Below, in pieces: positions 44,060 through 56,122 of a stretch of 64,000 bases of DNA. Where the stretch lies: NCBI GenBank assembly GCA_043825875.1, contig JBDRRF010000076.1, positions 128,001-192,000 on the forward strand, given 5' to 3'. The notes under the pieces were generated by a model. It saw nothing but the letters and a program-made list of their open reading frames with translations. It was not told the DNA's origin and searched no databases. How positions within the stretch are numbered: position 1 is the first letter of the stretch; each line of letters begins with the position of its first letter. The position numbers and the translations under genes are program-made. This stretch comes from Pseudomonadota bacterium. GTDB lineage: Bacteria; Desulfobacterota; Desulfobacteria; Desulfobacterales; RPRI01.

Positions 44060-44221
44060 CCTCTATTTGTGCACAGCAATTCCCGGTGGAATAATAAACT
44101 GTCTAATATAACCATCCAAAACAAAACTGAAATTAAAGACTATAAAGATTGCTGATTTCGGGAAATTTTGCTTGACTTTATAGCCATTCTTTATTAGATA
44201 AACAATTCTTTAAAAGACTGA

Positions 44222-44297
44222 TCCCCAGTAGCTCAGCAGGTAGAGCAAGTGGCTGTTAACCACTTTGTCCGCGGTTCGAGTCCGTGCTGGGGAGCCA
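44222..44297 (+). tRNA. tRNA-Asn(GTT)
   Basis: 76-nt cloverleaf TCCCCAG...CTGGGGA-GCCA; anticodon loop CTGTTAA; GGTTCGAGTCC T-arm. Confidence 0.97.
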
Positions 44298-44305
44298 AAC
44301 AAATC

Positions 44306-44343
44306 AAGGGCTTAGATAAGTTTTAAATCTAAGCCTTTTTTTA
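44306..44343 (+). terminator. Element-supplied tRNA terminator
   Basis: AAGGGCTTAGAT...ATCTAAGCCTTTTTTT. Confidence 0.7.
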
Positions 44344-44363
44344 TTCCCCACGTTATTCCCCAC
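44342..44363 (+). repeat. Integrase arm-type sites (left)
   Basis: TATTCCCCAC twice, 12-bp period; the same pair is at 52386-52407. Confidence 0.75.
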
Positions 44364-44450
44364 ATTTTAACTTGAAAATAAAAAAAGGCGGATGAAATCA
44401 CCCGCCCCCTTAAATTCTTTCAAAAGCCTTTCCGGATCTTTACGCTTATT

Positions 44451-44945
44451 TTATAATGCTTTTGGTGTATTCTTCCGCCGCATTCGAAAATCATCTAAAT
44501 TTAATACCGGTTCTTTTATTTTCAAATCCTCAATTTCAATCAACAAACTATCAAAGTCTTTTAGTAAAATTTGGCAAGCTGCAACGGGTGAAATGTCTTT
44601 TTCTGCTAAATCGTTCATTCTATTTATAATGCCATTAAGAAATTTATATTTATTTAAAACTTCCGCTGAAAAAAGCGGGCCATTTCGACGCATCTTTATG
44701 GCTGCAATTATATCTTTAAAAAACATGTTTGAGTATCTATCCCGCTCGGTTCGGATATTTTTTACATAATTACGATAGGTTTTTAACGTCGATTCTTTTA
44801 ATGGTTTCCCGTACTTGCTAACATGGTTTTTAAGCTTCTTTTTTATATTGATATATTTATTGATAACGTTCGTTCGGTAGTAATGTAATTTATGTTTAAG
44901 CTCAGCTTCAAGCTCATTTAAATCCATACTTTGATATTGTTTCAT
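44451..44945 (-). CDS. Hypothetical basic protein downstream of the c4-like RNA
   Basis: 164-aa ORF with G-rich RBS. Confidence 0.7.
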   Translation of the reverse strand: MKQYQSMDLNELEAELKHKLHYYRTNVINKYINIKKKLKNHVSKYGKPLKESTLKTYRNYVKNIRTERDRYSNMFFKDIIAAIKMRRNGPLFSAEVLNKYKFLNGIINRMNDLAEKDISPVAACQILLKDFDSLLIEIEDLKIKEPVLNLDDFRMRRKNTPKAL

Positions 44946-44961
44946 ATCTTACCCCCCCCTT

Positions 44962-45042
44962 AAAATAAAAAAGCCTGAAGGCGTCCCCGGTCCAGAGAAC
45001 CGCTCACAATATCACTATTGCAAGTACCTTCAGGCTTATTTT
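44962..45042 (-). ncRNA. c4-antisense-like three-way-junction RNA
   Basis: 11-bp closing stem AAGCCUGAAGG/CCUUCAGGCUU plus U tail; GUGA-tetraloop hairpin; CGGUUC-UCU-GGACCG hairpin; complementary CCCC...CCAGAGA upstream. Confidence 0.65.
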
Positions 45043-45121
45043 TAATATTTGTTTTCATGTCTCTGGCTTTGGGGTTTTTATATACTTATATACGTGTATA
45101 AGCATTGTCAAGCATTATTTA

Positions 45122-45150
45122 TTGACTTTTAAGTTTTAAATCCATATAAA
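45122..45150 (+). promoter_or_regulatory. sigma70 promoter, probably leaderless, for the RHH gene
   Basis: TTGACT-N17-TATAAA with ATG 7 nt after the -10; divergent TTGACA at 45111-45106. Confidence 0.6.
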
Positions 45151-45157
45151 AAAAGTT

Positions 45158-45322
45158 ATGAAAGAACGAAAACCCTTCACAACAAGTTTAAACATATTGC
45201 TACTTAAAGATATTAAGAAGCTTGCAATTGACCATGACAAAGGTGTTAATGATCTTCTCGAAGAAGCTATCCGGGATATTCTAAAAAAGTATGAATTACA
45301 GTCTCAAAAACCCACCAAATAG
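45158..45322 (+). CDS. Ribbon-helix-helix protein (54 aa, absent from the ORF track)
   Basis: MKERKPFTTSLNILLLKDIKKLAIDHDKGVNDLLEEAIRDILKKY. Confidence 0.8.
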   Translation: MKERKPFTTSLNILLLKDIKKLAIDHDKGVNDLLEEAIRDILKKYELQSQKPTK

Positions 45323-45478
45323 CATAACCTATTAACTAATTGAAATTGCTTATAATATCGGCTTAATTAGAGTCGTTTACAGCGTACTTTATGAAAAAGA
45401 CATGGTTTAGCATGCCTCGTTTACGGCCGTTTTTCAGTTTTGAACCCGGATTGCTACGCTTTACCCCAAAAACAGCTT

Positions 45479-45522
45479 GGGTCCTTCCAGAGGTCTTTCG
45501 ATATTAGGGGTAATTCGCACCC
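45479..45522 (+). other. cos-like site B
   Basis: GGGTCCT-N17-ATTAGGGGTAATTCGCACCC. Confidence 0.6.
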
Positions 45523-45579
45523 GTCTATTTTTCTACATGTGATGATTTTTCATAAGTACCTAATACCATGACATAATCA

Positions 45580-45933
45580 TTAATCCCCAAATTTAAAAAA
45601 ACCCAGATCATCATCTGGATCATCATCAACGTCATCATCCGGATCATCATCAAAGCCAAATTTGTTTATATTTACAGATAGTTCAGGATAATCATAAACA
45701 AAATCTATACACGAATTATTTTGTTTTGGCTGTTTCCGGTTTAACAGAAAGCTTTTGCGGCCCCACTCCTGCAAAGCAACTTCAAGATCAATTTTCTTTA
45801 CATTTTTTATATTAACAATAGAGTGGCTTAACTTGCCGGATTTAATCGCGGCGGAGATCCTTTGCCGTGATACTCCTATCAGCCTGGCAAATTGGCTGTT
45901 GGTTATAAAGATTCTATCTTTTTTTCGTGGCAT
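45580..45933 (-). CDS. Small-terminase (Nu1/Rpp)-like winged-HTH protein with acidic tail
   Basis: TNSQFARLIGVSRQRISAAIKSGKL...KIDLEVALQEW; lies between two cos-like sites. Confidence 0.6.
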   Translation of the reverse strand: MPRKKDRIFITNSQFARLIGVSRQRISAAIKSGKLSHSIVNIKNVKKIDLEVALQEWGRKSFLLNRKQPKQNNSCIDFVYDYPELSVNINKFGFDDDPDDDVDDDPDDDLGFFKFGD

Positions 45934-46014
45934 GGCATAACTTTTAAAAACTGCTGTTGTTTTTTCTTTAAAATTACAACCCGATTTTGTAACTTTGTGT
46001 CTAAAAAAAGGGCA

Positions 46015-46058
46015 GGGTGCGAATTACCCCTAATGGAAAAAAACTTTTAGGAGGACCC
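46015..46058 (-). other. cos-like site A (upstream of the terS-like gene)
   Basis: Minus strand GGGTCCT-N17-ATTAGGGGTAATTCGCACCC; identical blocks to site B, different spacer. Confidence 0.6.
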
Positions 46059-46071
46059 GCACCTTTTCCGG

Positions 46072-46818
46072 TTAACTTGCGCTTAAAGTTTCAAGGTATT
46101 GGTCATGCAATTCCGGTTGATCATGTATAACGGCACGAACAGCCTGTGCCATTGACATGTTATGTTCCGAAGAATACTGATTAACCGCTTCCATAAATGG
46201 CTCTGTCGTATGTTCTACCTTTGCCATAGGTTCACTCTTTGGCGCCTTGGCTTCATCTATCAGGTTGTTAACGTATGATTCATGCAGATCCGGGTTTTCT
46301 TCTGACACGGCACGAACAGCCTGTGCCATTGACAAGTTATGTTCTGAAGCATACTGATTAACAACGTCCATAAAAGATAGTTTGGTTTCTGTCTGGACTG
46401 AAGCTTTGCCTTCCTCTTTTTGTTTGAGACAGATATGATCCGTCCAAAGTTTCGGATATAGCTCTTGACATCTAAGCGTTGCTACGCCCTTTGATTGTTC
46501 TTGGTGTTCCCACTGATACCTTGAAACAGCCGCCTCAAAAGTCAAAGGGATTCCACCCGGGACACCTTGCTTGCCTGTATCCTTTACTTCTTCAGGCTCA
46601 ACGGCTGCATCTGTGCTTATTAAATGGTTAAAATAACTCTCACCGTTTGGGAATTGTTTCTGAAGCTCTTTATCGCGGAAAAACTCACGATCTGCACTTA
46701 TTTTTAGCAGTAATTCTGACCCTTTAATCTCGCTCGGTTCCCCATTTTCCAGAATATGCCGATAAAAGCTTAATGCTTCCATTGTGTTTTCTGCAGGACT
46801 CAAATTATTATCCATCAT
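46072..46818 (-). CDS. Hypothetical protein with 2-3 helical repeats resembling a phage scaffold C-terminus
   Basis: FMDVVNQYASEHNLSMAQAVRAV..NPDLHESY and FMEAVNQYSSEHNMSMAQAVRAV..QPELHDQY. Confidence 0.7.
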   Translation of the reverse strand: MMDNNLSPAENTMEALSFYRHILENGEPSEIKGSELLLKISADREFFRDKELQKQFPNGESYFNHLISTDAAVEPEEVKDTGKQGVPGGIPLTFEAAVSRYQWEHQEQSKGVATLRCQELYPKLWTDHICLKQKEEGKASVQTETKLSFMDVVNQYASEHNLSMAQAVRAVSEENPDLHESYVNNLIDEAKAPKSEPMAKVEHTTEPFMEAVNQYSSEHNMSMAQAVRAVIHDQPELHDQYLETLSAS

Positions 46819-46829
46819 AACCCCCTTTA

Positions 46830-47384
46830 TTAAATAAAATGTGAATGTTCGAATTTTCTAAAGACGTCATTCATTTTAAATCGCATGTTTGCATCAAGCC
46901 CGGAAAGTGCGTTGGTACTATCGGGCAAGCATTCATCCTGAATAATTTTTGCCATGGTTTTAAAAGCTGTTTGACGCTCTTTAATGAACTCGTTTATTTC
47001 ATCCACGAGCAAATCGCCATGAGGAAGAAGCCGGTCAGTCAACTTTTTTAAGATTTGCTGATTGATTTCAAAAATCTGCTGTTCGATTGGTTTTATCTGT
47101 GAGTCAATTTCTTCGGGAATGTCTTCATACTGCGGAAGTAATTCAAGGATACCGGTCAGCTTTTTCTGGATTTCGGGAACCTTGGCATCATTGCCATCGA
47201 CAAGAAGATCTTTTATTTGTTTTTTCAAGTCTTCTGCCTGCTTCTCATATCCAAGAATAGTGTCCTCAACTTTCTTCTTCCGCTCCATAATCTGCTCTTT
47301 GTTTTTGATAAGCACCTGTTTTTGTTCAAGTTCAGTTTTTACTGCTTCAATACATTGGTCCAGACAGCTGTTCTCTTTCTCCAT
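46830..47384 (-). CDS. Coiled-coil hypothetical protein
   Basis: RBS AGGAG; E/K/Q-rich heptad pattern. Confidence 0.75.
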   Translation of the reverse strand: MEKENSCLDQCIEAVKTELEQKQVLIKNKEQIMERKKKVEDTILGYEKQAEDLKKQIKDLLVDGNDAKVPEIQKKLTGILELLPQYEDIPEEIDSQIKPIEQQIFEINQQILKKLTDRLLPHGDLLVDEINEFIKERQTAFKTMAKIIQDECLPDSTNALSGLDANMRFKMNDVFRKFEHSHFI

Positions 47385-47423
47385 GGTCCAATTCTCCTAT
47401 TTTGTGTAATGGTTATTAAAATT

Positions 47424-47497
47424 TTGCCGTGTGAATGTGCCGACCGGAAAGGGTTTCGGTTGCCGGGCCTCACGGTTGCCGGATTCACACGGGCAAA
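47424..47497 (-). ncRNA. Three-way-junction structured RNA
   Basis: UGCCCGUGUGAAU/AUUCACACGGCA closing stem; CC-GUGA-GG hairpin; ACCGAAA-CCC-UUUCCGGU hairpin. Confidence 0.55.
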
Positions 47498-47727
47498 CTG
47501 TTTAAAGCTGTATTTGCTAAACTTATTAAAAAATTAACGTGATTTATTTCTTCTTGGTAATCATGCTTTAGCTTTTCTCTTTTCTTAAATTCTTTATAAT
47601 CAAGATATCCGCTCGGCAATTCAGAAAGCTTTGCTCTGGCATCTGCAATCCGCTTGTTATAATTTTCAAGATCAAGAACTGCTTCTTGTGTTAATTGTTC
47701 AGAAGTATAAAAAATAGTATTCGACAT
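47485..47727 (-). CDS. Small hypothetical protein
   Basis: Likely start MSNTIFY; helical; stop codon lies inside the RNA stem. Confidence 0.55.
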   Translation of the reverse strand: MSNTIFYTSEQLTQEAVLDLENYNKRIADARAKLSELPSGYLDYKEFKKREKLKHDYQEEINHVNFLISLANTALNSLPV

Positions 47728-47789
47728 TTTTACTTTTATCTTTTTTGTTTTTAAAAAAACACACAAGTGTGAATCTGGAAGATTCGCAC

Positions 47790-47957
47790 CCTTCTTAAGA
47801 CCTTCTTAAAAACATACTTATAATACCTTCTTAGGGGGGAATTTTTTCCCATGTTTTGGAAAAAATCTCCCATGTTCAGGGAAAATTTTCCCGTCATTAC
47901 GGGGAATTTTTTCCCATGCTCTTTTTTGATCTTATTTATTACAGGGAATTTTTTCCC
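47790..47957. repeat. Putative replication origin with five iterons
   Basis: GGGAA-N4-TTCCC-type 14-mers at 47837, 47858, 47879, 47902 and 47944; CCTTCTTA x3 at 47790-47833. Confidence 0.8.
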
Positions 47958-47968
47958 ATAAAAAAGCA

Positions 47969-48685
47969 TCATACCGCCACCCGATCTCTTAACTTTTGGT
48001 TTAAATAACCCGGCTTCCAATGCTTTTTTGGAATAAGAAAAACCCGCCAAACTCTTTCGCCTTCATAGGTATCATATGGTTCAATTAAAAAGTTCTTTTG
48101 AAGGCTTTTTATAGCATCCCCCACACTTCGCCTGTTGATTCCGGCAAATTCAGCTAACCGCCCAATTTCAGCACTACACAACTCCCAGCGTCGTTTTGCA
48201 AAACGCTCTTTGAACTCAAGGTTATCATATTCAACGTTCTCATCTTCTTCGGCATCATAATATGAGAAATATCTCATTACTGGATAAAGTGCTTTTGCTG
48301 TTGGTTTGAGTTCTGACCATGTGCCGCTTCTAATAATCCCATTATAAAAGAAGAACGACCGGCCATTTTCACCCTTTTGAGGAAATTTCAATTTATAGTA
48401 CTTACCCCGTTTTCCGTGCCGGGTCAGAAAATACTCCCATGTAAACCCAGGAAAACCGTCAAGGTCTTTAATACCTTGCCGTACGGTTTTAATATCTAAG
48501 CGCGATAGTGCAGCAATTGTTTCTTGACCCGGAAATGCTTTACCGTGTTCATCACAATGACAAGCAATTACAGGAAGAACCGCCTTTGCTGCTGTTGATA
48601 TATTTGACCAGTTCATATTCTCGTTCCATCTTTTATCGAAACGAAAAAACAGCGTCCAATCAATATCAGCCGAAAAATGATACAT
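47969..48685 (-). CDS. Replication initiator-like protein with tandem winged-HTH domains
   Basis: WSNISTAAKAVLPVI...AFPGQETIA..TVRQGIKDL and WSELKPTAKALYPVM...LAEFAGINRRSVGDAIKSL; adjacent to iterons; ATG 48685 after TGTGAGG. Confidence 0.75.
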   Translation of the reverse strand: MYHFSADIDWTLFFRFDKRWNENMNWSNISTAAKAVLPVIACHCDEHGKAFPGQETIAALSRLDIKTVRQGIKDLDGFPGFTWEYFLTRHGKRGKYYKLKFPQKGENGRSFFFYNGIIRSGTWSELKPTAKALYPVMRYFSYYDAEEDENVEYDNLEFKERFAKRRWELCSAEIGRLAEFAGINRRSVGDAIKSLQKNFLIEPYDTYEGERVWRVFLIPKKHWKPGYLNQKLRDRVAV

Positions 48686-48725
48686 TATTATCGCCCTCAC
48701 AGCGCAACCGCCCCACAAGAAGTAA

Positions 48726-48787
48726 TCGGAAGAGAAACGAGGTGTGAGGTTCCTTGCCTATCGGCGCGCGCCGCCTATCTCTTCCGA
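48726..48787 (-). ncRNA. Structured RNA motif (int-alpA-like), copy upstream of rep
   Basis: UCGGAAGAGA/UCUCUUCCGA stem; UAGG-hairpin-CCGAUAGG; loop CCUCACA complementary to the rep RBS. Confidence 0.65.
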
Positions 48788-48928
48788 AATTCAAAATCTG
48801 CAACTGGTTTTTGTTTTGGTTATTAAATGCGTCAAGTGAACGGTTTGAGCAACCCTGGGACATAGTATCAGGCTGACACATGCCGGAAGCTGAAAACCCG
48901 CTTCTTAGAACCTCTGGTGGCTTCATGC

Positions 48929-49126
48929 TTATGCACTCAACGACTTTTCAGGATCAATCCGGTGTGAGTCTATAAAAGACTCAATATCTTTAAGCCGGTA
49001 TCTGACAGAACGCCCGATTTTAATAAATGGAAGTCCACGGCTCATAAAACGATCATTTCGTAAAGTGAATACGCTTTTACCGATAATTTTTGCTGCTTCT
49101 TTTTCGTTGATAATTCCTAAGCTCAT
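48929..49126 (-). CDS. AlpA/excisionase-like HTH protein
   Basis: INEKEAAKIIGKSVFTLRNDR...GLPFIKIGRSVRYRLKDI; RBS AGGAG. Confidence 0.88.
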   Translation of the reverse strand: MSLGIINEKEAAKIIGKSVFTLRNDRFMSRGLPFIKIGRSVRYRLKDIESFIDSHRIDPEKSLSA

Positions 49127-49323
49127 ATTTACTCTCCTTTTTTCAATGTACTTCTTTTAAAAAACAAAAAAGCCACAAGATTATTTATCCTGTAGCTATA
49201 GAGTACTACTATTTTTTTCTAAGTCAATTATTTAAAATGATTATAGGAAGTTAGCTGATATTTTAAACTTTAGAATATCAGCTTTTCTTTTGATAAATAA
49301 GAGGGTTTTACAGTTATTAAAGT

Positions 49324-50370
49324 TTAAACCCTTTTCAGGTATAATGGTATATATATTAACCGGAGAGTGTTTTCGCTGAGGTATAAGTTGAACTTTTCAA
49401 TATGAACGGTATCTCTTGTTATGCTTTTAAGCAAAAAGGGGTTTCTTTTGATCTTTTGTAAAAAAGCATAAAGATCTATTGCAAAACCGCTATTGCTTTT
49501 AATCTTATAAGGTTTACTTCTCTCTTTTAATTTTATTTCACCTTTATTATTTGTAATTGCTTCATTTGCAAGAAAGTATTCTATAATTTTAAAAAGAATT
49601 TGATCTCTGGGATTAATTCTTATTTCTCGTTCTTTTTCTTTTTGCTTTATTTTTGCAATGCTTTTCTTTTTGCTTTCCAGGTATTTCTTTTCGGCTGCTG
49701 GCCGTAATTCATCACTTTCACTCATAAACCGATGTATTAAAAATGCGTCCATTTTTGCTCTATTAATTGTTGCTGCTCGTTTTGAGTACGTTCGGGCATC
49801 TTCAAGATACTTCATAGAAGAACTATCTTCTTCAAATCTCATACCTTCCACTAAAAAACTTTTTACAGAGAATATTGCCATTTCAATAGCAAACAGATTA
49901 AACAGTGCCTCCGAATCGATTTTTTCCCTCGCGCCTGGACTTACTCCATTAGTGCAAAGTGCCTCTCGCCATATTACCTCTTCTGGAATGCCACATTCGC
50001 CTTTCATCCCTGAATAGTTGTTACGATATCTTTTAAAAAGTGCTGCTGAAGCATTTAAACTATCCGTGTAAATAGAATCTGCTCCCCGTTTGTAAATAGC
50101 GCGTAAATCTTCAAGAAATTTTGCAGGAAAACCGATAAGGCTTTCAATAACCTTTGAGGAAGGCCAAAGAGAATTCCCTAAGCATGGCACGTTATCTTCA
50201 AGGTGAAAACAAACAATAAAATTTGTGCGGCATTCTCTTATAATTAAAAGGCATTCTTGGAAGTATTTACTTTCAATTTCCAAAGATTCCAACCGCTGAA
50301 TATCTCCAAATATCGGGCATCGTTCATTATAAAATTCTGTTTTATAAGGATTGTTTTCAAGTTTATTCAT
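49324..50370 (-). CDS. Hypothetical protein (element cargo or regulator)
   Basis: 348-aa ORF between the TA module and alpA; no motif recognised. Confidence 0.7.
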   Translation of the reverse strand: MNKLENNPYKTEFYNERCPIFGDIQRLESLEIESKYFQECLLIIRECRTNFIVCFHLEDNVPCLGNSLWPSSKVIESLIGFPAKFLEDLRAIYKRGADSIYTDSLNASAALFKRYRNNYSGMKGECGIPEEVIWREALCTNGVSPGAREKIDSEALFNLFAIEMAIFSVKSFLVEGMRFEEDSSSMKYLEDARTYSKRAATINRAKMDAFLIHRFMSESDELRPAAEKKYLESKKKSIAKIKQKEKEREIRINPRDQILFKIIEYFLANEAITNNKGEIKLKERSKPYKIKSNSGFAIDLYAFLQKIKRNPFLLKSITRDTVHIEKFNLYLSENTLRLIYIPLYLKRV

Positions 50371-50403
50371 TGCTTGTCCATTTGCAATGCGTCCTGAAAT
50401 TTA

Positions 50404-50460
50404 TTGAGGGAAGCTGGCAGGACATTTCCAGCTTATCGGCCCGTCGGCCTATCCCTCAAA
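50404..50460 (-). ncRNA. Structured RNA motif (int-alpA-like), full copy
   Basis: UUGAGGGA/UCCCUCAA stem; UAGGCC-GACG-GGCCGAUAAG; AGCUGG/CCAGCU hairpin with loop GUCCUG. Confidence 0.65.
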
Positions 50461-50471
50461 AGTATTTGTAA

Positions 50472-50828
50472 TCACATAAGCACCCGGTAATCAATCTTGA
50501 GTGCATCGCCAAATAACCGGGCATTTTTCCGGCCTATAACCCTTTTCCCGTTTTCCATTTCAGAAATGTGACGCTGAGGGATTCCGGTCAATTCGGAAAG
50601 TTGCCCTTGCGTCAAACCCTCTTTATGCCTTGCGCCTGATAGGGCGACACCGGGAGAATTGTCTTTAAATTCAGGAAAGGCATCTCTCCAGGGAATAGTA
50701 TCCGATGCATCCTTATAGCCGATAGACTTCATCAACTTGACGGCCTTATCTTTCTCCGACACCGGCCCGGAGAACGTTAATACAATGCTTTTAGTACGGC
50801 GCTTTTTCGTGTGTTCCAGCATAAACAA
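50472..50828 (-). CDS. XRE-family antitoxin (HigA-like)
   Basis: ARHKEGLTQGQLSELTGIPQRHISEMENGKR; overlaps the toxin 3' end. Confidence 0.85.
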   Translation of the reverse strand: MFMLEHTKKRRTKSIVLTFSGPVSEKDKAVKLMKSIGYKDASDTIPWRDAFPEFKDNSPGVALSGARHKEGLTQGQLSELTGIPQRHISEMENGKRVIGRKNARLFGDALKIDYRVLM

Positions 50829-51072
50829 CCTCGATCAATTGTATTTCATTATCAATAATCTGCCAAACCGCAACATAGGTCGGCTGACCCTTTTTTAAAT
50901 GGCAATGGTGCCTCTGATCTTTCAGTTTGCCATAATTTGGCCAGTTGCCCCTTATCGGCCCTTTGAGTTCAATCTCTCTCAACAGGGCAAAAAGAGATTT
51001 CTTCGCCCTGACAGGCAACCGGTCAATCATCTTGTTTATCCGCCTGGGAATTACCACCTGCCATTTAATCAT
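50791..51072 (-). CDS. RelE/HigB-like toxin
   Basis: GPIRGNWPNYGKL..HHCHLKKG.PTYVAVW..EVVYAGTHEKAPY; toxin-first arrangement. Confidence 0.8.
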   Translation of the reverse strand: MIKWQVVIPRRINKMIDRLPVRAKKSLFALLREIELKGPIRGNWPNYGKLKDQRHHCHLKKGQPTYVAVWQIIDNEIQLIEVVYAGTHEKAPY

Positions 51073-51162
51073 GATAATAATATACCTTTTTTTAGTATCA
51101 AATCAAGATTTATTTTTTATCGTTTACATTTGCCGCTTCTTATCGGCCCGTCGGCCTATCCC

Positions 51163-52332
51163 TCAAACTTCGTTTGCTGCTTTAACCTTTGATGTTTTGT
51201 TCGCTGGCTTGTTTATTATATCCCCTGCAAGCGCTGAGGCTCTTTTCAATGCGTCATCTCGCAAGTGTGCATACCTTTGAGTCATTAGCGGGCTCTTATG
51301 AGTCAGAAGCCTTTGCAAGGTGTATAAGTCAACTTGCCCAGAGCTTGCCAACACAGACGCATAAACATGACGGAGCCCATGCATCGGCCTAAATCCAACA
51401 GGAAGTCCAGCCTTGTTTCGGATACGGTCAACGCTTTTTCTATTCAAAGTAGTTAAATGAGATCCTTCCCTTTGCCCTGGGAAAATCCATCCATTACTTC
51501 CTGCTTTTTCTATTTTTTCTAATACAGCTAACGCAGAGCCGTTTAAAGGGATACTCTGATCTTGCCCGCCCTTTGGGTTACGGATTGTAATAAAACCCCG
51601 CTCAAAGTCAATGTCCTGCCATTTTAACCGGAATATTTCGCCCCGTCTCATGCCTGTATAAAGTGCAAGTTTCATAATACTTGCCGTTGTCTGATCTTCA
51701 TCTCTCTCTAAAACAGCCAGTAAAGATTTAATCTGATATTCTGTTAGATCTTCTGTTGTTTGGTTGTTCAATCTTGGGATTTCAATTTTAAAAGTAATAG
51801 GAGAAGTCTTGCCCTTTTTCACGCCATAATTGAGAGTCCGGCGAAGGATTTCAAGCACCCTTGCTGCTGTTGTCTTATGTCCCTTTTTTAATAACCCCAA
51901 ACGGAGCCGATCAACATCAAGCGGAAGAAGTTGACCCGGTTCTTTATCGCCAAGCACCTGCCTTATGTGAACATCGAATTTTCTTTTCTCCGCATTTATA
52001 ATTTTATTGTATGGATTATTTTCACAGTATGAATCCCAAAGTTTCGCAATAGTCCATCGGGTATTTACAGCTTCCTTCCTTGCCTTTTCAACTTCTCTTT
52101 TTTCTGTATTTGAAGTTTGATTCCCTTCAATTTTTTGTGCCCGGATACGCGCTGCCTTTGCAGGAGTCATATCATCTTGGAATTGACGCCCCACTTTTTC
52201 ATCAATTGCTTTCCCTGCTTTCCGATAACGGATATAATAAATCCTTTCCGGCCGGCCTGTAACTATTCCCTTGCTTTCAATATAATATACTCCAGGATAT
52301 TTTGTCTTGATTCGTAAAAATGATTTTGGCAT
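51163..52332 (-). CDS. Tyrosine integrase
   Basis: TGMRRGE, HGLRH, LLTHKSPLMTQRYAHL; N-terminal arm-binding domain; ATG 52332 after AGAGG. Confidence 0.95.
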   Translation of the reverse strand: MPKSFLRIKTKYPGVYYIESKGIVTGRPERIYYIRYRKAGKAIDEKVGRQFQDDMTPAKAARIRAQKIEGNQTSNTEKREVEKARKEAVNTRWTIAKLWDSYCENNPYNKIINAEKRKFDVHIRQVLGDKEPGQLLPLDVDRLRLGLLKKGHKTTAARVLEILRRTLNYGVKKGKTSPITFKIEIPRLNNQTTEDLTEYQIKSLLAVLERDEDQTTASIMKLALYTGMRRGEIFRLKWQDIDFERGFITIRNPKGGQDQSIPLNGSALAVLEKIEKAGSNGWIFPGQREGSHLTTLNRKSVDRIRNKAGLPVGFRPMHGLRHVYASVLASSGQVDLYTLQRLLTHKSPLMTQRYAHLRDDALKRASALAGDIINKPANKTSKVKAANEV

Positions 52333-52348
52333 TTTAAACCTCTTTTTG

Positions 52349-52407
52349 TTCCCCACACTACACAATAATTATAACCACTGCTTTTTATTCCCCACACTAT
52401 TCCCCAC
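52349..52407 (+). repeat. Integrase arm-type sites (right)
   Basis: TTCCCCAC at 52349; TATTCCCCAC at 52386 and 52398. Confidence 0.75.
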
Positions 52408-52532
52408 ACATAAATTAAATATACAGGTAATAAAAAGTAAGTCAATAAAAATAATACTCAATAATAATCTATTATTTCAAGGTATTTAATGACATAAATA
52501 AAAAGGAAGGTAAATTAAGGTAAATAGCTTAA

Positions 52533-52585
52533 AAGTGGCTGTTAACCACTTTGTCCGCGGTTCGAGTCCGTGCTGGGGAGCCAAA
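52533..52585 (+). repeat. att repeat (duplicated 3' part of tRNA-Asn)
   Basis: Identical to 44247-44299; lacks the 5' acceptor strand and D-arm. Confidence 0.95.
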
Positions 52586-52591
52586 AATTAT

Positions 52592-52621
52592 AGCCCGTTC
52601 ATTAATTGAGCGGGCTTTTTT
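52592..52621 (+). terminator. Probable original tRNA terminator
   Basis: AGCCCGTTCA-TTAAT-TGAGCGGGCT-TTTTT. Confidence 0.75.
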
Positions 52622-52781
52622 ATTGGATTTTATCATGTGATACGTATATATTAGTAATAGTTACGGTTTATAAATAACTTATGTTTTCGGAAATGCGTTC
52701 AATCCCATAAGGATGTATTGAAAAACCAAAATGGGAAAAGACGGAAATCGATACGAATTCAAATTCCCGTCTTTTTTTGTT

Positions 52782-53468
52782 TTATACTTCTTCAGCAGAT
52801 GCGCTTTCAGAACATAATCCGCGAGATGCTTTTTCCCAATCTTCTACTTCTTCGCCTTCTTCGATTTCTTCCCACCCGGTAATCATGGCCTTTATATGTG
52901 CAAAAATTGAGTGGCCGGTTGTAGTCATATAAACATGCACAACGATAAACGCGAGGATGGAGAATGCTCCGGCCAAATGAATCAGCGCCACAACGTTTAA
53001 AGAAAGAAAATCAAGTCCCCAACTCTCCCAGGAATTATATGTCCAGTAGAAAATTCCCGTGAACATCTGGATGGGCAAAAGCATTGCTGCCAGAAAGAGA
53101 TAGGTCAGTCGTTGTAATGGATTGTGTTTGGCGCCTTTTCGTTTCGGCACCGGGTGCGATTCGCCTTTAAAAATACCAAAACCATAGTAATGTACGACCT
53201 CCAACAGCTTTTTTGTAGTTGGAATATACTGTTTCCATTCACCGGTCGTAAATATCCAGAACACGAAAAACGCAAAAGCAATCAGCCAGGTAATGCCAAG
53301 GAAATTATGCACCTCAACAGCCCGTTCAAAACCAATTAGCGAGTAAACACCGTGGATTTCAAAACCTGTTATAAGCAGCAAAAAGATCAGAAGCATTTGC
53401 AGCCAGTGCCAGAAACGCTCGTAGCGGGTGTACAGATAGGTGGTTATAAGTTTTATTGAATGCATCAA
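52782..53468 (-). CDS. Cytochrome b (PhsC/hydrogenase b-type) membrane subunit
   Basis: RYERFWHW, HNPLQRLTY, His residues in four transmembrane helices. Confidence 0.9.
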   Translation of the reverse strand: MMHSIKLITTYLYTRYERFWHWLQMLLIFLLLITGFEIHGVYSLIGFERAVEVHNFLGITWLIAFAFFVFWIFTTGEWKQYIPTTKKLLEVVHYYGFGIFKGESHPVPKRKGAKHNPLQRLTYLFLAAMLLPIQMFTGIFYWTYNSWESWGLDFLSLNVVALIHLAGAFSILAFIVVHVYMTTTGHSIFAHIKAMITGWEEIEEGEEVEDWEKASRGLCSESASAEEV

Positions 53469-55100
53469 TTACTCCTCCTTCTTACGACCATTGGTAAAGA
53501 TCCTGCCCAGAGCGTGGAGAACAATACCACCAAATGAACATAGAACAATGGCCCATCCGGCAAAGTCGATAATATTGACTTTGTCGCGTCCCGGCATATA
53601 AAACCCAGCCAGATTGGCCAGACGGCTGTCAGGCCGTGTGTGACACTGACTGCATTTCAGCGCTTCTTCCCTGGGAGAAACCATATGGGTGCTTGGAAAA
53701 ACATAGGCAGTTTCTACAAAGTCAATTTTGCCGCTAAATGGCAGATCCAGATATTTTGCGCCCCGCTGAATGGAATCCTGCCAGTCAAAAGTGGTCCAGT
53801 ATCCATGTTCTCCTGATAAAAGCGGCGTTGTCATTGTTTTGTTTACCGTGTCATAGGGCTGTTTGCCCGAATGAATATTAAAGGGGAAAATACGTGCGTT
53901 TTTATCATTACGATTTCCATTCGGCCAGGCCAGTTTGACTATCTTGCTCGGATCAATCATATCTTTGGCTGTGACCCCTTTGATGGAACCGTTGAACCAC
54001 AGATATTTTGGGATCACATTTTTTTCCCATTTTGTATCTCCTTTGGTCGTTTGATATACGGGCTTTCCGAAAGGACCGTATACATCATAAGGCTTTCCGT
54101 CTTTTTTCTTTCCTGCCTTGGACCAGTCCCACCATCTTTGAACAGGTAAAACTTTCGCAATAACAGGAACATGACAGGCCTGACATGCAACCTTGTCCGT
54201 ATGGTCATTCATTTTACTGCTTAACGCATGAGGCTTGTCACTGTGACAGGATTCACACATAATTTTGGGTTCAAGATCGTGCTCAAGAAGGCTGTGACGC
54301 GTTTCAGAAGCCGGTGTTCCGTAAATCCTTCCTGCAACATGGTGCGCAATGGTTGTATGGCATCTGGTGCACTCAAAATCCTGGCCATCATATCCCATAT
54401 GAACATCGAGTTCTTTGTTGGGATTAATTAAAGAAGGATCCAGATCACCATGCTTAACACCATCTCCACCTCCACCGGAAAAATGACAGGTACCGCAGTT
54501 TTTGCGCGTTGGGCGTCCGATACTCTGGACAACTTCGTGGATTTCAGCCTGAGCGTCTTTGGCAAGAGCTTTTTCTTCCGGATCTTTTGACTCAGCAAAA
54601 TACTTATAATCTCCAAAAACCTCTTCCCAGTTGATTTTTTTCCGGCCATGACATTTCAGACAATCGATTTCTGTTTTCTTGCCTTCCTCATTCCATCCAA
54701 TGTGACATTCGTTGCAGTGATGATCATTCATTGCATTGGCTGAAATACAAAAATTGTTTACCGAATATCCGGCCTTGCCCATTTTATTATCCTTTGGTGA
54801 ATTGGGATCAAGCCACGTCCAGTGAAGCGTTTTTTTCAACTGGTTGGCCGCTTCTGTATGGCATGAAAGACAGGCTTTACTGATTTCGGGTCCTGATGTA
54901 AAATTTTGATTCAATGCTTTAAACTGTGAATGATCAGCTGTGGTAGTATTCTTTGCTTCTTTAACTACCTGCCGGGCAAGTTCCAAACCGGGTGCATCCT
55001 GATCCTGATTTGCAAATAAAAGTGTAGACGCAAAAAACAGGAAACATATCCACAGGAAGAATAATACATAACTTTTATGTGTTAATTTAAACCTCATCAT
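53469..55100 (-). CDS. otr: Octaheme tetrathionate reductase-family cytochrome c
   Basis: Eight CxxCH motifs; NNFC; GGGGDGVKHGDLD; C-terminal membrane anchor. Confidence 0.9.
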   Translation of the reverse strand: MMRFKLTHKSYVLFFLWICFLFFASTLLFANQDQDAPGLELARQVVKEAKNTTTADHSQFKALNQNFTSGPEISKACLSCHTEAANQLKKTLHWTWLDPNSPKDNKMGKAGYSVNNFCISANAMNDHHCNECHIGWNEEGKKTEIDCLKCHGRKKINWEEVFGDYKYFAESKDPEEKALAKDAQAEIHEVVQSIGRPTRKNCGTCHFSGGGGDGVKHGDLDPSLINPNKELDVHMGYDGQDFECTRCHTTIAHHVAGRIYGTPASETRHSLLEHDLEPKIMCESCHSDKPHALSSKMNDHTDKVACQACHVPVIAKVLPVQRWWDWSKAGKKKDGKPYDVYGPFGKPVYQTTKGDTKWEKNVIPKYLWFNGSIKGVTAKDMIDPSKIVKLAWPNGNRNDKNARIFPFNIHSGKQPYDTVNKTMTTPLLSGEHGYWTTFDWQDSIQRGAKYLDLPFSGKIDFVETAYVFPSTHMVSPREEALKCSQCHTRPDSRLANLAGFYMPGRDKVNIIDFAGWAIVLCSFGGIVLHALGRIFTNGRKKEE

Positions 55101-55198
55101 AGTATATCCATTTTTTTATTGCTGCCAAGGCACAAGAGACACAAATAAAGAAGTAGAAAATATGTCTTTGCGCCTTTCGACATTCATATCAAATAAAT

Positions 55199-55543
55199 CT
55201 ACTTGCATTTTGCCGGGGATGGAGAATCTGCCGCATGTTCATATAAATACGAATAAATGTCGTTCAAATCTTTTTCTGACAATTTGCTCCATTCTTCACT
55301 GCATTTAAACTGATCAAAATCTTTTTTTTCGAAAGTCCGCTTCCATTGGGCCTGTGTTTTTGAATCAGGACTCAATAGCGGTTTGGGAGAATCAATTTCA
55401 CCACGCTTGCTGCACGCTTTATAAACATTACGATACGTGTATTTACCTTTTCGCGAATTGCCGTCTTCACCGGCAAAACCAATACCGATAGAAGTAAATA
55501 CAAAACCAATTACCATTAAAGTTAATACTACTTTTTTTAACAT
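55199..55543 (-). CDS. Periplasmic cytochrome c-like protein lacking CxxCH
   Basis: Signal peptide; GNSRKGKY, SPDSKTQAQW, HAADSPSPAKC. Confidence 0.7.
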   Translation of the reverse strand: MLKKVVLTLMVIGFVFTSIGIGFAGEDGNSRKGKYTYRNVYKACSKRGEIDSPKPLLSPDSKTQAQWKRTFEKKDFDQFKCSEEWSKLSEKDLNDIYSYLYEHAADSPSPAKCK

Positions 55544-55589
55544 GTTACCTCCTTATATTTATTAAAAATTATATTGCTTAGGATTTTAA

Positions 55590-55904
55590 TTAAAAAACCA
55601 CATATCGATCCATGTTAGCCACCATTTCAGCATTTTTTGCCTGGGTGGCAAAGTCTTTGAAACCAACGCCAGGAACCTCATCTTCACGCCCGTGCAACCC
55701 ATTAGCTCTGAAACTGACATCACATATTGCCAGTTTTGCTTTTCCCACCAGTTTCTTAAAATCAGGTTTAAGCGTCAGAAGCACACCCTTTCCTGTAAAA
55801 AATATATGAACATCTTTTCCTTTCAAATGGGCGGCCCGTGTCAGGTTGACAACATAATCAAGATGCTTATCAGTATTTACAAGAATACCCAGCGTATCAG
55901 CCAT
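55590..55904 (-). CDS. DsrE-family sulfur carrier
   Basis: GKDVHIFFTGKGV, AICDVS, DRYVVF. Confidence 0.8.
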   Translation of the reverse strand: MADTLGILVNTDKHLDYVVNLTRAAHLKGKDVHIFFTGKGVLLTLKPDFKKLVGKAKLAICDVSFRANGLHGREDEVPGVGFKDFATQAKNAEMVANMDRYVVF

Positions 55905-55948
55905 AGCCTTTACTCCTTCCTAAAATTGATATTGATGTCATTTACTTG

Positions 55949-56122
55949 CTACCACCAGCAAATGACCTTATCGTGTAAAAAAATATCATCCACAAGCCCT
56001 TCCCAGTCAACATTGCCTTCATATAGCATTATAACAGATGACTGATTCTCTTTGGAAACAGCTTCGCCAAGTTTTTCAACGGTTTCATCCGGTTCTGATC
56101 TTAGGATATTAAGTACTTTCAT
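55949..56122 (-). CDS. Small DsrH/TusB-like protein (57 aa, absent from the ORF track)
   Basis: MKVLNILRSEPD...VDWEGLVDDIFLHDKVICWW; RBS AGGA. Confidence 0.75.
   Translation of the reverse strand: MKVLNILRSEPDETVEKLGEAVSKENQSSVIMLYEGNVDWEGLVDDIFLHDKVICWW

Follow-up and report, generated by a model that had tools for sequence, protein, structure and literature searches.

A tRNA-Asn-integrated candidate phage satellite of Desulfobacterota encodes tandem copies of a lambdoid scaffold tail

What kind of mobile element occupies 8.3 kb at a tRNA gene, carries packaging-type signals and has no recognisable capsid gene? The question is raised by a 64,000-nt stretch of a Pseudomonadota bacterium (GTDB lineage Desulfobacterota, Desulfobacterales, RPRI01; assembly GCA_043825875.1, contig JBDRRF010000076.1, positions 128,001–192,000), hereafter the window, whose numbering is used throughout. 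A model-generated reading of the letters (hereafter the sequence-only reading) had proposed a satellite type with an iteron-binding helix-turn-helix (HTH) initiator and RNA-level control. The satellite type is supported by independent tests, and we consider it probable, with room for doubt, that the element is a dormant satellite of lambda-like cos phages of Desulfobacterota that encodes a scaffold mimic comparable to CpmB and Rcm of Staphylococcus aureus pathogenicity islands (SaPIs). That a lambdoid cos helper packages it is very probable. The features are collected in Table 1.

The element is real, intact-looking and integrated. Its ends are two identical 53-nt attachment (att) copies whose starts lie 8,286 bp apart, as the sequence-only reading had stated, and arm-type repeats (TTCCCCAC, starting at 44344, 44356, 52349, 52388 and 52400) lie inside both ends, where it had noted arm sites. 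That reading had also suggested searching for relatives at tRNA-Asn; 14 stretches were fetched, 13 of them from genomes of the same genus, and one of the stretches (L238, genome G003, same genus) joins window positions 44148–44299 (96.7%) directly to 52533–56000 (95.9%). L238 is a precise empty site, in which the tRNA adjoins the gene beyond the right att copy. Two further stretches of the genus (L236 and L237) hold different large islands at tRNA-Asn with the same arm repeats, so this tRNA serves integrases of one type as a hotspot. The G+C content is 38% in the element and 39% in the genome. Short contigs from two marine runs, probably one data set, are ~87–95% identical to orf164, orf248, cc184 and rep; together with the empty site they speak against an orphan fragment in decay. 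The rep relatives in named genomes belong to Desulfobacterota or deltaproteobacterial metagenome-assembled genomes.

Protein scans covered 15 open reading frames (ORFs) with Pfam, PHROGs and NCBIfam at E ≤ 0.1. They returned no capsid, portal, large terminase (TerL), relaxase or primase-helicase family, in agreement with the sequence-only reading, and no tail, holin or head-tail gene. The leftward gene run was recovered as that reading had described it, with three omissions: orf164, the gene for a 54-aa ribbon-helix-helix protein, and a third, degenerate repeat in orf248.

A new result concerns the product of orf248. It had been noticed as a repeat protein, which it is; what had been missed is that the repeats are copies of a scaffold tail. 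They span residues ~87–134 (degenerate), 141–184 and 200–244, and each clear repeat alone matches the last 45 positions of the head-maturation protease family phrog_976. No whole-length relative of orf248 was found. An unfiltered search of 1.84 billion representatives gave 30 matches, namely orf248 itself, 27 proteins that match the repeat region (10 of them with a prohead protease domain, which belongs to either of two classes), and two very long proteins that match another part and were dropped. A 15-row profile (A3) matched 22 of 401 class genomes, including the own genome, and all 26 of its non-own matches could be placed: 17 are single copies in lambdoid head modules and nine lie in eight small elements. 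The single copies sit at the extreme end of the protease gene (15 whole genes, two cut by contig ends). Head modules were recognised by portal phrog_21, protease phrog_53, phrog_673, capsid phrog_1005 and TerL phrog_15; in the 11 that were scanned, phrog_53 was found in all, and among the ORFs submitted phrog_21 was found in eight, phrog_1005 in nine and phrog_15 in five. The domain is single in 17/17 prophage head modules and tandem in 7/8 small elements.

The eight small elements (L195–L202) have a primase or primase-helicase gene, and an integrase where the contig reaches, with no tblastn match to helper portal, TerL or capsid. Four of them are closed by att copies (9.1, 9.9, 10.0 and 22.0 kb) at tRNA-Arg, -Ala or -Leu. 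Their tail genes take several forms: bare tandem tails (L195, L197, L198, L199), a scaffold middle followed by tails (L196), a whole S49 protease with tandem tails (L201, L202) and a single tail (L200).

The third, degenerate orf248 copy came to light with a profile built on the last 60 aa of 11 prophage proteases (the last-60 profile). Lambda Nu3 is matched by a longer, 190-aa profile of the tail (E 1.7e-4), the alignment ending just short of the domain, which therefore sits at the end of a Nu3-type scaffold. The AlphaFold model of orf248 has two three-helix units joined by a flexible linker, and no solved fold matched the tail domain. In a 44-column tree the satellite copies never formed one group (0/200 bootstrap trees; 8 changes versus 11.2 when shuffled), and some stand beside particular helper tails with weak support, which fits, and does not prove, repeated capture of the scaffold tail by satellites. 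Judged from these profiles, orf248 is the copied and multiplied end of a helper-type scaffold. We think it likely that the protein acts on helper head assembly; that it makes small heads is a possibility towards which we are slightly sceptical.

Two of the small elements deserve separate mention. L201:9104-10330 and L202:8955-10169 mark two 9–10 kb elements of one genome in which an S49 prohead protease with tandem tails occurs without a capsid gene. L195 together with L249 (G507:C1, ~210,450-232,430) forms a 22-kb att-bounded element at tRNA-Arg with a small terminase (TerS), a cos-like site, tandem scaffold tails, a decoration-like gene and a tape-measure protein of its own (953 aa); no match to portal, TerL or capsid was found in it, and the length of the tail may be reset by this satellite as well. 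Several satellite-type elements have a small gene family without a name in common (L195:4480-4695, L196:4245-4523, L198:9020-9232 and L017:10321-10677), which was not seen in the window ORF set.

The cos-like sites of the sequence-only reading were borne out. Two occurrences of GGGTCCTYC-N14-26-GGGTAATTCG lie in the window, compared with none in 100 shuffles, and the rest of the 4.77-Mb genome has none. Searching IMG/VR with the motif plus the window's next five letters gave 102 viral contigs, 80 of them with flanks. A same-strand downstream ORF of one cluster follows in 71 of these 80, and both cluster members tested are lambda-type TerL (phrog_15). Of 30 first ORFs picked by hand, 27 are phrog_57 TerS. 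Lambda gpA matches 27/80 and Nu1 16/80, always downstream on the same strand and never upstream or on the opposite strand. This context identifies the two inverted sites as copies of the motif found ahead of terS-terL in lambda-like phages. The letters that come before it resemble those after the 12-nt end of the lambda record. The 12 letters upstream of it differ between sites 1 and 2, so the sites may serve two helper specificities. The first half of the motif is also present in 2/11 prophage stretches and 5/8 satellite-type loci. In four viral contigs (L080, L089, L133, L140) the motif precedes a primase-type ORF rather than terS (one was tested); these are possibly other satellites.

The gene between the sites, orf117, had been called terS-like. 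The family match is confined to the N-terminal DNA-binding third: residues 7–67 align with phrog_57 positions 10–69 of 199, and blastp matches to the TerS of motif-bearing phages are limited to the first ~55 aa. The C-terminal half is acidic and of low complexity, and no clear ribosome-binding site precedes the gene. AlpA-type HTHs also touch phrog_57, weakly. We regard orf117 as a candidate Rpp-like packaging redirector or a truncated TerS, the former being the likeliest model. Rpp of E. coli phage-inducible chromosomal islands (PICIs) is a TerS-like winged-helix protein of 144–153 aa with a dimerisation domain that pairs with helper TerS, according to the portion of PMC6739421 available to us.

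The predicted initiator agrees with the sequence-only reading. An AlphaFold2 model of Rep built from a 50-row alignment (pLDDT 95) has two winged-helix units, and Foldseek placed the Pi initiator on iteron DNA first (2NRA; E 5e-4, TM ~0.49, 13% identity) and RepE next, so that the modelled fold is, distantly, the tandem winged-helix fold of the iteron initiators Pi and RepE. The iteron cores start at 47951, 47909, 47886, 47865 and 47844 and adjoin AT-rich TAAGWAKGT repeats, which by sequence is the layout of an iteron-type origin with unwinding repeats. Six of 15 inspected relatives (L009, L010/L011 as one element, L017, L021, L024, L026) have at least three exact 10-mers at the same place, each with its own iteron sequence; AT-rich repeats were seen by eye in most of the others.

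The Rep search gave 53 matches among 289 candidates, including the own record; 52 loci were fetched, and the rep profile matched 8 of 401 class genomes, own included. Of these 52, annotation covered 24, for which 150 of 202 listed ORFs were scanned, and genes for TerS, TerL or capsid were found in 7/24 (L016, L017, L019, L024, L046, L047, L053). Many other rep loci are bounded by a tRNA and an integrase and have none of these genes, or are truncated at a contig end. In L270 the order int-ORF-alpA-rep recurs with no toxin-antitoxin (TA) pair. The element is a mosaic, a property missed earlier: its replicon and its late module have separate sets of relatives and were found together only here, with replicon relatives mostly using other packaging genes and late-module relatives using primases. 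Among the rep-family elements, L017:8213-10265 and L024:2874-4831 have TerS and capsid genes only, and L046 and L047 resemble capsid-forming PICIs (cf-PICIs), with TerL, portal and capsid genes.

The proposal of RNA-level control stands in part. Structured RNAs are supported by Rfam, by a model of our own and by covariation; control itself is suggested by position and covariation. The Rfam model identifies the int-alpA RNA ahead of orf348 and gives no match at E ≤ 1 to the second copy, which was found only with the model built here from seven copies. That model gave 14 matches in 69 sources and two in nine more, and no match in 11 prophage stretches or P4. Outside the training set, matches lie just ahead of rep in L015, L028, L042 and L267, behind int in L199 and L266, and ahead of other ORFs in L003 and L022. 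Two-sided changes occur in 13 of 15 pairs, a number reached in 0/500 shuffles, in an alignment that was fitted to the model. The uncharacterised int-alpA RNA is thereby assigned a constant place, the 5' end of rep, at which its function could be examined.

Beside orf248 lies cc184, for which language-model features give a lead only towards Psu and Sid. Its nearest named Atlas cluster is PF07455 Psu (0.90, 179/256 features), unnamed clusters scoring higher (0.94–0.95). The PF07455 profile gave no match, blastp to Sid and Psu was not significant, and tail coiled-coil families were touched only at E 0.4–0.8. In six of the eight other elements the tail gene has a helical ORF of 198–259 aa next to it (by eye), and only those of L201 and L202 are alike.

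How does the element compare with described satellites? No gene-for-gene match to PICI, cf-PICI or P4 was found, and published systems are cited here from portions of the papers named. In its workings the element is like a cos-type PICI. It is not filed as one because two of the five core components of PMC10085698 are missing and a third is doubtful. It has an integrase at a dedicated att site and an alpA regulator; it has a tandem winged-helix initiator in place of a primase-replicase module, and no capsid-like gene; its small-terminase component is the partial match of orf117. By family scans it would count two to three of five components, and orf248 is a possible non-homologous analogue of the PICI capsid-morphogenesis gene. 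Gram-negative cos PICIs such as EcCICFT073 (PMC6092414, PMC6739421) share the int-alpA-replication-ori order with genes running one way, two cos sites, a lambdoid helper and a small TerS-like winged-helix protein (Rpp), to which orf117 is likened by description of domain and size and not by sequence. The element differs from them in its iteron initiator without a primase-replicase or capsid-like gene, in cos sites that face each other around orf117, and in its scaffold-tail protein.

For that protein the closest parallels are SaPI CpmB and Rcm (PMC6893505, PMC12409344), satellite proteins that copy a helper scaffold and lie in a late helper-exploitation cluster. CpmB shares the C-terminal motif of the scaffold, binds the same coat site and switches heads from T=7 to T=4 (PMC6893505); Rcm is a second scaffold-like case (PMC12409344). 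These act on pac phages of Firmicutes, whereas the present element points to lambdoid cos phages, and CpmB has one motif per chain and dimerises, whereas orf248 has two to three whole three-helix domains per chain. The Pfam and PHROG scans gave no homology between orf248 and CpmB or Rcm, and no direct comparison was made. The likeness of orf248 is to scaffold C-termini of helpers of the same class, not of a cognate helper. In the available portions of PMC6893505 and PMC12409344, capsid-size switchers are listed for P2, SaPI and ICP1 helpers, and a lambda-dependent E. coli PICI is packaged in normal heads.

P4-like satellites (X51522; PMC10085698) share tRNA integration, an AlpA-like gene, a structured RNA ahead of the replication genes and a coiled-coil protein of ~190 aa, for which the Psu/Sid-like language-model features of cc184 are a lead only. 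The element differs in having no match to the alpha primase-helicase, epsilon or delta, no P4 match to its own RNA model, and a lambdoid helper type where that of P4 is P2. The likeness to cf-PICIs (PMC10085698; bioRxiv 2022.09.08.507074) lies in the rep relatives L046 and L047, with their TerL, capsid, scaffold or portal genes; unlike cf-PICIs, the element has no capsid, portal, TerL or head-tail genes of its own. Integrative mobile elements encapsidated in virions (VEIMEs) and phage-inducible chromosomal minimalist islands (PICMI) (PMC9618062; PMC10803314) are likewise small and capsid-less, and some VEIMEs have plasmid-type initiators; the portions of these papers available to us describe them as not remodelling capsids and mention no scaffold-tail gene.

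Cos-type signals combined with scaffold-tail copies lead us to propose that the element probably hijacks a helper head and may reshape or block it. The integrase inserts the element at tRNA-Asn, as the att copies, arms and empty site show, and would presumably excise it. A helper phage would switch on alpA and the leftward run, with the int-alpA RNAs ahead of orf348 and rep possibly gating expression. Judging from its fold and the layout of the origin, Rep would bind the five iterons, open the AT-rich repeats and borrow a host or helper helicase. Helper terminase would cut at the cos-like sites, to which orf117 may steer it as Rpp does. The orf248 protein would present its two to three tail domains and compete with helper scaffold inside the assembling head, as CpmB and Rcm do; we predict interference with the helper's heads, probably with a change in their size. 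Even a T=4 head is large for an 8.3-kb monomer, and therefore dimers in small heads and concatemers in full heads are both possible.

Several observations weigh against this account. No helper was found in this genome, nor in 17 genus genomes, where the control also matched nowhere. In a run that is possibly the source, element depth (26.5) equals that of the flanks (27.6 and 27.0; contigs only), which indicates an integrated, quiescent element in that run, and neither an attP nor an attB joint is listed among its contigs. Searches for the cos cut site found nothing. The rep gene has no match in 72,556 plasmids or in the cultured phage collection, and six of the 52 rep loci (L004–L007, L025, L040) are helicase clusters without an integrase. 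L200 is a satellite-type locus with a single tail copy, and the tandem-tailed proteases P0071–P0089 could belong to phages. Satellite-biased duplication has a Fisher p of 1.7e-5, which overstates the case because 6 of the 17 single-copy cases come from one genus. The last-60 profile ranks orf248 first of 48,045 genome ORFs (E 7.7e-21, next 0.17), which speaks for the scaffold-tail identity but is not fully independent because the prophage tails had been found with a profile containing orf248. Lambda Nu3 gives no match to the last-60 profile (E 0.74), so the coat-binding role of this domain rests on analogy with the scaffolds of P22 and 80alpha, drawn partly from PMC6893505. Finally, marine VEIMEs and EcCICFT073 are carried in heads of normal size (PMC6893505, PMC9618062), so a change of head size is not required.

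The strongest alternative, which we judge unlikely, is that the same satellite uses orf248 as a decoy on portal, protease or terminase docking, or as an assembly poison, and travels as concatemers in full-size helper heads. The domain does lie past the stretch of the scaffold that aligns with Nu3, packaging of concatemers at unchanged head size is common according to the available portion of PMC9618062, and the varied tail genes (whole S49 protease with tandem tails in L201 and L202, scaffold middle in L196 and L198) suggest several uses; set against these are CpmB, a copy of the helper scaffold C-terminus, and the scaffold-like Rcm, which bind coat and shrink heads (PMC6893505, PMC12409344), and the long coiled-coil neighbour of the tail gene in most of the other elements.

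It is improbable that the element is a decayed lambdoid prophage remnant whose int, rep, cos, truncated terS and scaffold scrap are leftovers without a helper-directed function. The absence of two thirds of TerS and of a clear ribosome-binding site in orf117, the degenerate first orf248 repeat, the lack of a helper or of amplification, and an HTH_36 initiator with adjacent iterons that is also phage-like (phrog_1032) would fit such a remnant, but the att copies are perfect, the ORFs are intact without stops, and the scaffold tail lies upstream of cos, unlike the order of a head module. Tail duplication, moreover, is absent from every prophage case, the same design occurs in seven other elements with other replicons, and the marine contigs contain pieces that are 87–95% identical. 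An integrative plasmid-like element spread by conjugative mobilisation or vesicles, with cos and scaffold pieces as incidental cargo, is highly improbable: the Rep fold is that of plasmid initiators, a TA-like pair and a ribbon-helix-helix protein are present and SGI1-type islands replicate with an iteron Rep, yet the family scans show no relaxase, the plasmid set has no rep match, rep relatives carry TerS or capsid genes, and the two cos-like sites cluster with the scaffold-tail gene in late position.

The satellite with a scaffold mimic is thus the reading we prefer. A broader and more doubtful extension is that satellites of Desulfobacterota repeatedly captured the helper scaffold tail, multiplied it to form a multivalent internal scaffold, paired it with a Psu/Sid-like coiled-coil and shrink lambda-type heads; if true, this would amount to a switch of head size acting on lambdoid cos phages and combining the internal strategy of SaPIs with the external one of P4. 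With the tandem scaffold-tail protein, remodelling or blocking of lambdoid phage heads can be tested concretely and at little cost; the protein also points out which scaffold domain probably holds the coat in this group of phages. The tail-domain and rep profiles provide two markers for satellites in Desulfobacterota. Current satellite models would probably miss such elements because they have no primase-replicase, and the main text of one satellite survey (PMC10085698) has no occurrence of 'Desulfo'. In the literature searched, which covered few subscription papers and no supplements, we found neither Desulfobacterota satellites nor tandem scaffold-tail proteins described, nor a scaffold mimic for a lambdoid helper in Gram-negative satellites.

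Table 1 Features of the element and its integration site (window coordinates)
Feature	Position	Strand	Basis
tRNA-Asn(GTT), intact integration target	44222–44297	+	Only tRNA-Asn found genome-wide by ARAGORN
att core, left copy, 53 bp	44247–44299	+	Inside tRNA-Asn(GTT); empty site L238
Integrase arm-type repeats, two TTCCCCAC units	44338–44364		Repeat scan
Intrinsic-terminator-like hairpin, end of leftward run	44382–44411	-	Consensus scan only
orf164, accessory position	44451–44945	-	No family over cut-off; related DNA in marine runs
Stable three-way-junction RNA/DNA structure upstream of orf164	44971–45037	-	z -5.27, 0/200 shuffles as good
54-aa ribbon-helix-helix protein	45158–45322	+	phrog_3180 E 1.5e-6
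cos-like site 2, inverted, pointing into orf117	45479–45535	+	Motif
orf117, TerS-type winged-helix domain and acidic tail	45580–45933	-	phrog_57 E 4.7e-6
cos-like site 1, ~70 nt upstream of orf117 as in phage cos-terS units	46002–46058	-	Motif
orf248, tandem C-terminal three-helix domains of lambdoid protease-scaffold proteins; candidate scaffold mimic	46072–46818	-	Profile searches
cc184, helical coiled-coil	46830–47384	-	Psu/Sid likeness: language-model features only
Structured leader upstream of cc184-orf248	47410–47497	-	z -2.72, 2/200 shuffles as good
orf80/93, small helical protein	47485–47727	-	No family match
Origin, downstream of rep: five iterons, then AT-rich repeats (47800–47833)	47790–47959	-	Repeats
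Rep, 238 aa, tandem winged-helix iteron-type initiator	47969–48685	-	PF13730 E 1.4e-13
int-alpA-type RNA, copy 2, ~30 nt 5' of rep	48715–48786	-	Own model
AlpA-like HTH / excisionase-type regulator	48929–49126	-	PF12728 28.1 bits (cut-off 27); phrog_66
orf348, variable slot between int and alpA	49324–50370	-	No family match
int-alpA RNA (RF02996), copy 1, ahead of orf348	50392–50460	-	Rfam 39.3 bits (gathering 35.8)
TA-like pair: 93-aa ORF, then XRE-HTH antitoxin	50472–51072	-	Family scans
Tyrosine integrase, probable start 52332	51163–52365	-	PF00589 E 4.7e-30; phrog_1
Integrase arm-type repeats, three units	52349–52408		Repeat scan
att core, right copy, 53 bp	52533–52585	+	Identical to left copy

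The toxin of the TA-like pair, which from gene order and size may be RelE/HigB-like, matches only the unnamed family phrog_32175. A 29-bp direct repeat (50432–50460 and 51139–51167) flanks the pair; this repeat corresponds to the 5' part of the int-alpA RNA and takes in the stop codon of int, which suggests that the pair was inserted there with a duplication. The adjoining orf348 has no match among gathered ORFs, and in L270 an unrelated 355-aa ORF occupies its slot. Neither the structure upstream of orf164 nor the leader of cc184-orf248 has an Rfam family or a copy in the other gathered loci. The conserved helicase cluster of L004–L007, L025 and L040 combines a rep homologue with a 1,180-aa helicase, a HAD hydrolase and several ORFs without a named family, and its rep homologue is possibly a domesticated copy or part of a defence locus. 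A copy of the 54-aa ribbon-helix-helix protein, 68% identical, adjoins int in L035. Upstream of alpA, a near-perfect palindrome with 14-bp arms (49253–49283) is a candidate operator or terminator.

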